A stretch of DNA of 18,665 nt from a virus. Shown here piece by piece: positions 6,001-9,000 of this stretch (within the stretch, counting starts at the first letter, position 1; every line of letters starts with the position of its first letter). The stretch is from UHGV virus genome UHGV-0090469. One strand, 5' to 3'. Made by a program: the position numbers.

Positions 6001-9000
6001 CTATATGCAAATTGAAACAAAAGAGATGGTGATCTTTCTAAGAGATGATGGAATCTCCCTTCAGTATCCCGATGGTCAATGCGCTGGATATGGGATAGAT
6101 GGGAATATGCTGATTTTTATGGGACAGAGTTGCGAACTGTTCCCAACTAAAATCATTTTGCACGATCAGCGCACTACGAACTTTACCCACAAATAGTCAG
6201 GTAATGAATCCTGATATAAAGACAGGTTGATAAATCAGTCTTCTACGCGCATCGCACGCGCACATCAAAGAGAGTCTTTCAGTAGTGAGCCTGGGTGATG
6301 CCGTTAGGTTGCGTTTACCTCTCGGGCGGCATTGCCGTGCGACAGGCTCACGCCTAAAAGGAAATATTCCATGAGTAACAAAATCATTACGCTATCTGGC
6401 GCTGCTAATGAAGTGCTTTATGCGCTGTTTTTCCGTGGCGCGTTGCTGTCTGGTGATCTGCCTTCTAAATCTGGCACAGCCGAATTGCGCGAGCTTGGTT
6501 TTGCTGAAACCAGACACACAGCAACTGAATACCAGAAAGAAAATCACTTTACCTTTCTGACATCAGAAGGGCAGAAATTTGCCGTTGAACACCTGGTCAA
6601 TACGCGTTTTGGTGAGCAGCAATATTGCGCTTCGATGACGCTTGGCGTTGAGATTGATACCTCTGCTGCACAAAAGGCAATCGACGAGCTGGACCAGCGC
6701 ATTCGTGACACCGTCTCCTTCGAACTTATTCGCAATGGAGTGTCATTCATCAAGGACGCCGCTATCGCAAATGGTGCTATCCACGCAGCGGCAATCGAAA
6801 CACCTCAGCCGGTGACCAATATCTACAACATCAGCCTTGGTATCCAGCGTGATGAGCCAGCGCAGAACAAGGTAACCGTCAGTGCCGATAAGTTCAAAGT
6901 TAAACCTGGTGTTGATACCAACATTGAAACGTTGATCGAAAACGCGCTGAAAAACGCTGCTGAATGTGCGGCGCTGGATGTCACAAAGCAAATGGCAGCA
7001 GACAAGAAAGCGATGGATGAACTGGCTTCCTATGTCCGCACGGCCATCATGATGGAATGTTTCCCCGGTGGTGTTATCTGGCAGCAGTGCCGTCGATAGT
7101 GTGCAATTGATAATTATTATCGTTTGCGGGTCCTTTCCGGCGATCCGCCTTGTTACGGGGCGGCGTCCGCGCAGATTCTCGCTATTTATGAAAATTTTCT
7201 GGTTTATGCCATTTCCGTTCTTCTTCTTGTTTACTCATTGTTTTTGTTAAAAACGTCCTCTCTCCAGAAAGGAAATGCTGAGCAAGGAAAACGGAAGTTT
7301 ACCGTTGATTGTTTCCTTTCTCTGTTTTTTGCCAGGAGTAAGCCATGGAGGTTAACAAAAAACGCTTATCCGAAATTTTCGGGGTAAGCGTCCGAACGAT
7401 TCAGAACTGGCAGGAGCAAGGTATGCCGGTTGTCCGCGGTGGTGGCAAAGGTAATGAGGTTCTCTTTGAATCTGCTGCTGCAATCGAATGGTACAGTGCG
7501 CGCGATGCAGCTATAGAAAATGAAAAGTTGCGGAAGGAAGTTGAAGATCTCCGTATCGCTTCTGAGTCCGATCTTCAACCTGGCACGATTGAATATGAGC
7601 GACACCGACTTACGCGAGCTCAGGCTGACGCTCAGGAATTAAAAAATGCAAAAGAGTCCGCTGAAGTGGTGGAGACCGCATTCTGCACGTTCGTGCTGTC
7701 GCGGGTAGCCGGAGAAATCGCCAGCATTCTCGATGGAATACCTCTGTCGGTTCAGCGGCGCTTCCCGGAGCTGGAGAACCGACATATTGATTTCCTCAAG
7801 AAGGACATCATTAAGGCCATGAACAAGGCAGCTGCGCTGGATGAAATGATACCGGGGTTGCTGAGTGAATATATCGAACAGTCAGGTTAAGGGGCTGCAG
7901 CACTCTGCGCGGGCGGGGTTACGTTCGCTGTACCGGCCGCAACCGCAAACAGCAGTTGAATGGGCAGATGAGAATTATTATCTCCCGAAAGAGTCTGCCT
8001 ACCAGGAAGGGCGCTGGGAAACACTGCCATTTCAGCGTGCAATTATGAATGCGATGGGTAATGACTATATTCGCGAGGTGAATGTCGTTAAATCGGCTCG
8101 TGTCGGCTACTCAAAAATGTTGCTCGGCGTTTACGCATATTTCATCCAACATAAACAGCGTAACTCCCTAATATGGTTACCAACCGACGGTGATGCTGAA
8201 AACTTCATGAAGTCTCATGTAGAACCGACCATTCGTGATATTCCGACGTTGCTGGCGCTTGCTCCCTGGTACGGTAAAAAACACCGGGACAATACGCTGA
8301 GCATGAAGCGTTTCTCGAATGGTCGTGGTTTCTGGTGCCTGGGCGGTAAGGCTGCAAAAAACTACCGTGAAAAATCAGTTGATGTGGCTGGCTACGACGA
8401 GCTCGCCGCTTTCGATGATGACATCGAGAAAGAAGGTTCTCCCACCTTTCTGGGTGATAAGCGTATTGAGGGTTCTGTATGGCCGAAATCCATTCGCGGA
8501 TCTACACCGAAAGTCAAAGGTACGTGCCAGATAGAAAGAGCTGCTAAGGAGTCTGAACATTTTCTTCGGTTCCATGTTCCATGCCCACACTGTGGGGAAG
8601 AGCAGTATCTGAAATTCGGTGATAAAGAGACACCATTTGGCTTCAAATGGTCTCCGGGAGAACCTGCCAGCGTTTACAGGAGCTGGAATTTCTGGAGGCC
8701 AGGTATATTTGTGATGAAACAGGTATCTGGACACGAGACGGCCTTAACTGGTTTTCTTCATCCGGTACCGAAATTGAACCTCCTGACAGCGTTACATTCC
8801 ACATCTGGACCGCATATAGCCCGTTCACAACCTGGGTGCAGATCGTCAAGGACTGGATAAAAACAAAAGGTGATACGGGTAAGCGAAAAACTTTCGTTAA
8901 CACGACCCTGGGCGAAACGTGGGAACCGAAAATAGGTGAACGACCCGATGCTGAAGTTTTAGCGGAACGAAAAGAGCACTTTGAAGCGTCTGTGCCGGAG

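Follow-up and report, generated by a model that had tools for sequence, protein, structure and literature searches.

A 37-nucleotide gap between the ATPase and nuclease halves of the large terminase gene in a metagenomic lambdoid contig

Beyond position 8675 of the window (the whole stretch of 18,665 nucleotides that was analyzed), exactly 37 nt (ACTACCTCTGTGAACACAATGCCTGTGTGATTAAACA) are missing from the large terminase gene A of the lambdoid contig described here, and the gene continues past this point in another reading frame. The gap was determined by nucleotide alignment with the phages Phi06_2987 S (KM389287) and mEp237 (NC_019704), the references for the deletion, and its flanks are identical to both. 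The favored reading, to which a probability of roughly 0.6 is given, is a recent, singleton 37-bp deletion that acts as a null mutation of A in a packaging-defective prophage. Judged from its sequence, the A locus is classed as a disrupted member, that is, a pseudogene, of the GpA-type large terminase family. A preliminary description had proposed that the gene is split by a frameshift at 8640–8680, with about 37 nt missing relative to its lambda counterpart. Two ORFs in different frames, each with a single Pfam domain, bear out the split; the junction falls inside the proposed range, and the estimated size proved to be exact.

Architecture of the split terminase gene

The two halves of gpA are encoded by overlapping ORFs on the plus strand, namely 7865–8860 (frame 2, 331 aa) and 8647–9750 (frame 1, 367 aa). 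In the upstream ORF, Pfam finds only the GpA_ATPase domain (PF05876; E = 3e-48, residues 47–265), and the match breaks off at profile position 216 of 247. In the downstream ORF, it finds only the GpA_nuclease domain (PF20454; E = 9e-74, residues 49–327). The intact mEp237 protein contains both, with the ATPase domain at residues 47–285 and the nuclease domain at 322–600. The N-terminal ATPase domain and the C-terminal endonuclease domain of a GpA-type terminase are thus both present; they do not lie on one polypeptide of about 640 aa and are instead distributed over two ORFs in different frames, with the frame shift falling between them.

The native N-terminal part comprises codons 1–271 (7865–8677, plus strand) and, as its translation indicates, most of the ATPase domain; it shows zero nucleotide differences from Phi06_2987 S. 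It contains the Walker A motif KSARVGYS (residues 76–83), the Walker B motif VAGYDE (174–179), and a CPHC motif at residues 240–243 (window 8582–8593). It is followed by an out-of-frame tail of 60 non-native codons (RSWNFWRPG...SSRTG; 8678–8860, plus strand) that ends at the TAA stop codon 8858–8860. The downstream ORF begins with 10 non-native codons (MVSGRTCQRL) and reads from 8677 onward as native residues 284–640, which comprise the nuclease domain and the C terminus. For the protein of the N-terminal ORF, the exact-protein look-up returned no record.

At the protein level, residues 1–271 (...SPGEPASVY) are native, residues 272–283 (YLCEHNACVIKQ) are lost together with one base, and from Q284 (QELEF) onward the protein is native again, now in the other frame. 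The loss amounts to 12 codons plus 1 nt and starts 28 residues past the CPHC motif. The preliminary description had let the frame-2 homology run up to SPGE and resume in frame 1 at CQRLQELEF, with about 13 codons skipped after CPHC. The two frames and the position after CPHC stand; the native stretch in frame 2 is longer and reaches residue 271, and the residues CQRL are upstream DNA read out of frame.

The same picture is obtained at the nucleotide level. A megablast search with 7800–9800 aligns to Phi06_2987 S and mEp237 at 100% identity in two pieces, with 2038 subject bases facing 2001 query bases. Reinsertion of the 37 nt yields an ORF of 640 aa, which differs from the A gene of Phi06_2987 S in 0 of 1923 nt and from that of mEp237 in 1 nt. 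The junction is placed at 8675–8677 (plus strand), and its break point is ambiguous as AC begins both the deleted segment and the DNA that follows it. This 2-nt microhomology is the only sequence shared by the ends of the deletion: no direct repeats were found at the end points and no flanking repeat longer than 2 nt. A predicted hairpin in the 85-nt region (−9.1 kcal/mol, z = −0.71 versus shuffled sequences) is not significant. Slipped-strand deletion by way of direct repeats or a hairpin was hence rejected, as AC is all that the ends share and the fold is no better than that of shuffled sequences. As far as the sequence goes, the deletion is an unremarkable microhomology or nonhomologous event that supports no particular mechanism.

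Genomic context

The window corresponds to an entire metagenome contig (ENA ERZ786701, NODE_62_length_18665_cov_3.485330), to which it is identical over all 18,665 bases, as found through the exact-protein look-up. The contig carries a SPAdes-style name that states a k-mer coverage of 3.485330 (about 3.5). In the look-up, the same contig is recorded under two samples.

The gene content is that of the late region of a lambdoid phage. DinI, DUF1367, RusA, YlcG, and the antiterminator Q (2273–3088) are encoded along with holin, lysozyme, and Rz (3593–4891). Between Rz and the cos site lie four small ORFs of unknown function (5105–7099), all of which match PHROG families of unknown function: 5105–5302, 6005–6196, and 6371–7099 on the plus strand, the last with an additional weak Pfam match to Phage_Tail_Tip, and 5371–5985, the sole minus-strand gene. 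Judging by where they lie and by their differing orientations, these ORFs may represent moron-type cargo. The packaging genes start with Nu1 (7345–7890, plus strand), which encodes an intact small terminase subunit of 181 aa as identified by Pfam (Phage_Nu1) and by its correspondence to CDS 1–546 of mEp237, annotated as terminase small subunit. Downstream of A follows the intact head–tail joining gene W (9750–9956, plus strand; Pfam gpW and mEp237 annotation), the start of which overlaps the A stop codon (9748–9750) by one base. W is succeeded by the genes for the portal, an S49 protease/scaffold, the decoration protein, and the major capsid protein, by FI, FII, Z, U, V, G, and T, and by the start of the tape-measure gene. 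The preliminary description had regarded the structural genes as otherwise intact, and this agrees with the lengths of the head and tail genes, which equal those of mEp237 except for FI (14350–14766), which is 138 aa long here and 135 aa long in mEp237, probably through a 9-nt in-frame difference. Nothing was detected when the window was scanned for Rfam families and tRNAs.

The tail chaperone genes G (16871–17293) and T (17302–17622) stand in their usual −1 arrangement, with the sequence GGAAAAG at 17269–17275 near the end of G. It differs from GGGAAAG, the canonical site of lambda, and so forms an imperfect X XXY YYZ heptamer.

A cosN-like cohesive-end site (GGGCGGCGTCCG, 7158–7169) precedes Nu1 and would be the substrate of the terminase encoded just downstream. 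It was assigned because the linear records of N15 and phi80 have left ends that align at window 7158 (7157 for the phi80 record FN582354). The contig runs continuously through cos, which indicates integrated, circular, or concatemeric DNA in the sample. A mosaic boundary lies beside this site (7121–7164). On its left, window 3529–7121, with holin, lysozyme, Rz, and the four unknown ORFs, is 99.5% identical to a prophage of Escherichia coli Nissle 1917, where another packaging module, with a DUF1441 protein, comes after this lysis block. From 7164 on, the contig is nearly identical to Phi06_2987 S and mEp237 (five SNPs and the 37-nt gap). By sequence comparison, the element is described as a lambdoid prophage that combines a head–tail module of the mEp237/Phi06_2987 S/N15 type with a lysis module like that of E. 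coli Nissle 1917.

Comparison with intact terminases

Phi06_2987 S, mEp237, HK225, phi80, N15, and lambda share with this contig the gene order cos, Nu1, A, W, B and the Pfam domains of gpA. Outside the gap, A is 100% identical to its counterpart in Phi06_2987 S at the nucleotide level and differs by 1 nt from that of mEp237. With a 2-kb query covering A, identity falls to about 96.5% for HK225, 86% for phi80, and 82% for N15, and phages of the lambda group (2B8 and 2G7b) match only the first 44% of the query at about 80% identity. In Phi06_2987 S, mEp237, and the other relatives, A is a single ORF of 640 or 641 aa, whereas here 37 nt and residues 272–283 are lost and the frame is shifted. A naturally shorter but continuous gpA, considered in the preliminary description, was not found among the relatives; every close relative examined is continuous at 640 or 641 aa.

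The intact form of the allele is found in 10 of 5,426 complete E. coli genomes (at least 99.8% identity over 8450–8850). In all of them, the 401-base query corresponds to 438 bases within one annotated terminase gene, which means that each retains the 37 nt. The 11 phage records that cover most of A are likewise continuous without exception. The 90% cluster that contains the C-terminal ORF has 1,432 members, and the named ones that were read are either 640-aa terminases or partial proteins at contig ends. The junction itself was searched as a 36-mer, with no match in GTDB representative genomes, IMG/VR, or JGI metagenomes, and as a 20-mer, with no match in GTDB. The 20-mer has one match in the JGI metagenomes (JADDYB010007571.1, 1567–1586), which was dismissed as chance since it lies in an unrelated GC-rich gene that is otherwise unlike the window; 20-mers are not unique at the size of this database. 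The junction is a singleton among the collections searched.

A conserved cysteine cluster at the deletion

As a mildly useful side result, the deletion was found to affect a cysteine cluster with strong conservation among GpA-family terminases. The cluster was recognized in an alignment of 11 GpA-type terminases from phages of Escherichia, Pseudomonas, Citrobacter, Acetobacter, Rhodobacter, Xanthomonas, and Vibrio, with identities of 33 to 84%. Invariant in all 11 are the residues C, H, and C of CPHC (240–243) and both Y272 and C274 of a Y-x-C motif, and nearly all of them have a further cysteine two to four residues past Y-x-C. The conserved pattern at the end of the ATPase domain can hence be written as C-P-H-C...Y-x-C-x(2–4)-C, which takes the form CPHC...C-x4-C in this gene. 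Going by this spacing, the cluster looks like a putative four-cysteine metal-binding (zinc) knuckle. A sequence search gave no solved structure of the GpA family, and the terminase reviews consulted contain no description of a zinc motif or metal site in gpA; the zinc fingers described there belong to herpesvirus terminase subunits. In the gene studied here, CPHC is kept, and the Y-x-C...C half (272–279) lies within the deleted 37 nt. Because this half holds invariant residues, even a product in which the gap is bypassed in frame would be devoid of some of the most conserved residues of the segment.

Translation across the junction

A split of this kind might in principle be tolerated or even be functional, either by a −1 frameshift that yields a gpA shortened by 12 residues or by two polypeptides that assemble into an active terminase. 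The geometry would permit the former, as 8626–8860 is the one interval in which frame 2 and frame 1 are open at the same time, and an ATG at 8647 that opens the downstream ORF would permit the latter. However, the overlap contains no recoding signal: a scan of 8600–8862 found neither an X XXY YYZ heptamer nor an XXXYYY run. The sole canonical heptamer in A is A AAA AAC at 8356, and it lies upstream of the frame-1 stop codons at 8620 and 8623. In GACACCATTTGGCTTCAA, the sequence ahead of the ATG at 8647, the scan for start codons and Shine–Dalgarno sequences detected no Shine–Dalgarno sequence; frame 1 next offers a start that has one with the GTG at 9004, far into the nuclease domain. All relatives have single ORFs of 640 or 641 aa, and the bypass product would still be without the invariant Y-x-C and the second cysteine pair. 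Moreover, the restored gene equals the nucleotide sequence of an unsplit relative, which implies no adaptation to the split state. Taken together, a tolerated or functional split has hardly any chance of being the correct reading. Both of its routes were rejected on their own grounds as well: programmed −1 frameshifting by the missing slippery site where both frames are open and by the absence of the two-frame arrangement from all relatives, and independent translation of the C-terminal half by the ATG that has no Shine–Dalgarno sequence and by the GTG at 9004 being too far in.

The lambda G/GT system with its programmed −1 frameshift is similar insofar as its ORFs overlap and the downstream one lies in the −1 frame, and G/GT is itself present in this contig (16871–17622). 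All relatives share the G/GT arrangement, in which a slippery site lies close to the end of G; the split in A, by contrast, is unique to this contig, results from missing DNA, and lacks such a site. The preliminary description had likewise noted that the junction contains no slippery heptamer, which holds for the complete region 8626–8860, and had narrowed the interpretation to an inactivating deletion or a sequencing/assembly indel. The out-of-frame gap of 37 nt, the continuous relatives, and the missing recoding signal are in line with that choice rather than with a programmed frameshift.

Origin of the junction

The main rival to a genuine deletion is an artefact of assembly or library preparation, whether from a mis-join where coverage is very low or from a read that is chimeric or stems from a polymerase jump; the real A gene would then be intact and equal to that of Phi06_2987 S. 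This is a possibility to be reckoned with, if the less probable one. The k-mer coverage of 3.49 means that very few reads stand behind any single position, and the junction is absent from every other collection searched, with the exact 367-aa product of the C-terminal ORF on record for this contig alone. A is otherwise 100% identical to intact relatives; this lack of divergence in the rest of the gene is predicted equally by a recent mutation and by an artefact. A chimeric read or an amplification jump at a thin spot would give exactly the same picture.

Several observations speak against an artefact. The 2-nt microhomology is far below any k-mer size, and with no repeat to collapse, the junction must be present in one read or more. 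From the behavior of SPAdes, reads of the intact allele, had they been present, would be expected to produce a bubble and a broken contig. Furthermore, the loss of 37 nt outside a homopolymer or repeat is not a typical base-calling error. Across about 15 kb that can be compared with near-identical relatives, no other gene-disrupting indel is found. Over 11.5 kb aligned to Phi06_2987 S, the gap is the only indel, accompanied by five substitutions. Relative to mEp237, the only other gap within 8676–18665 is a 9-nt in-frame difference, which is probably accounted for by the longer FI. In the 3.6 kb shared with Nissle 1917, there is no coding indel, and the sole gap is a single base upstream of the holin gene, where the alignment has its edge. 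The lysozyme has the Nissle 1917 sequence except for two extra N-terminal residues in the ORF call of the window, and for Rz, the full length of the annotated Nissle protein is matched without a difference. A generally error-ridden contig was discarded as an explanation, given that no further gene-breaking indel appears relative to Phi06_2987 S, mEp237, or Nissle 1917.

The genuine deletion thus remains the favored reading. A single lesion in a contig of which the remaining 18.6 kb are nearly identical to viable phages indicates that the deletion, if real, is very recent.

Predicted consequences for DNA packaging

Lambda cannot do without gpA: translocation is powered by the N-terminal ATPase of the protein, cosN is nicked by its C-terminal domain, and docking on the portal is the part of its C-terminal end. 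In lambda A amber mutants, cos is not cleaved, and uncut concatemers and empty proheads accumulate. On the favored reading, a spontaneous 37-bp deletion with a 2-bp AC microhomology would have knocked out A. A product started at the normal GTG would consist of 271 native residues, with the larger part of the ATPase domain but not the second cysteine pair, and of 60 nonsense residues ahead of the stop codon. The nuclease and prohead-binding half, in the other frame and behind an ATG without a ribosome-binding site, would most probably not be made. By analogy with lambda genetics, induction of such a prophage would lead to replication, to the building of heads and tails, and to lysis, with no DNA being packaged. 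A co-resident phage with a cos-compatible terminase of the mEp237, phi80, N15, or lambda type may rescue packaging by providing gpA in trans.

The lambda A amber mutants are a close parallel in that gpA is terminated early, the other morphogenetic genes are intact, and rescue by gpA in trans is expected. They differ in being laboratory point mutations with tested phenotypes, whereas a natural or artefactual 37-bp deletion known from sequence alone is considered here. The cryptic E. coli prophages DLP12, Rac, and Qin have also lost the production of infectious particles by mutation. However, their decay is far advanced and shows in large deletions and numerous pseudogenes, in contrast to one visible lesion in 18.7 kb here.

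If the deletion is real and maintained, the prophage might persist within a population of gut E. coli as a terminase-null, helper-dependent "cheater" that retains cos, Nu1, and every structural gene and obtains gpA from a co-resident cos-compatible lambdoid phage. Such a life style, although highly improbable, would represent an early step toward that of a satellite.

Implications

The feature is of a known kind, either a pseudogenized prophage terminase gene or an assembly error that imitates one, and it involves no new mechanism. With either outcome, the knowledge of terminases is unchanged, and the importance of the finding beyond annotation is small. Should the junction be an artefact, it would illustrate that low-coverage metagenome contigs can hold isolated multi-base deletions that mimic pseudogenes. 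If real, the deletion is an ordinary first step of prophage decay. The two ORFs would then have to be annotated as one pseudogene instead of two terminase genes, and the prophage would have to be scored as packaging-defective despite its complete look.
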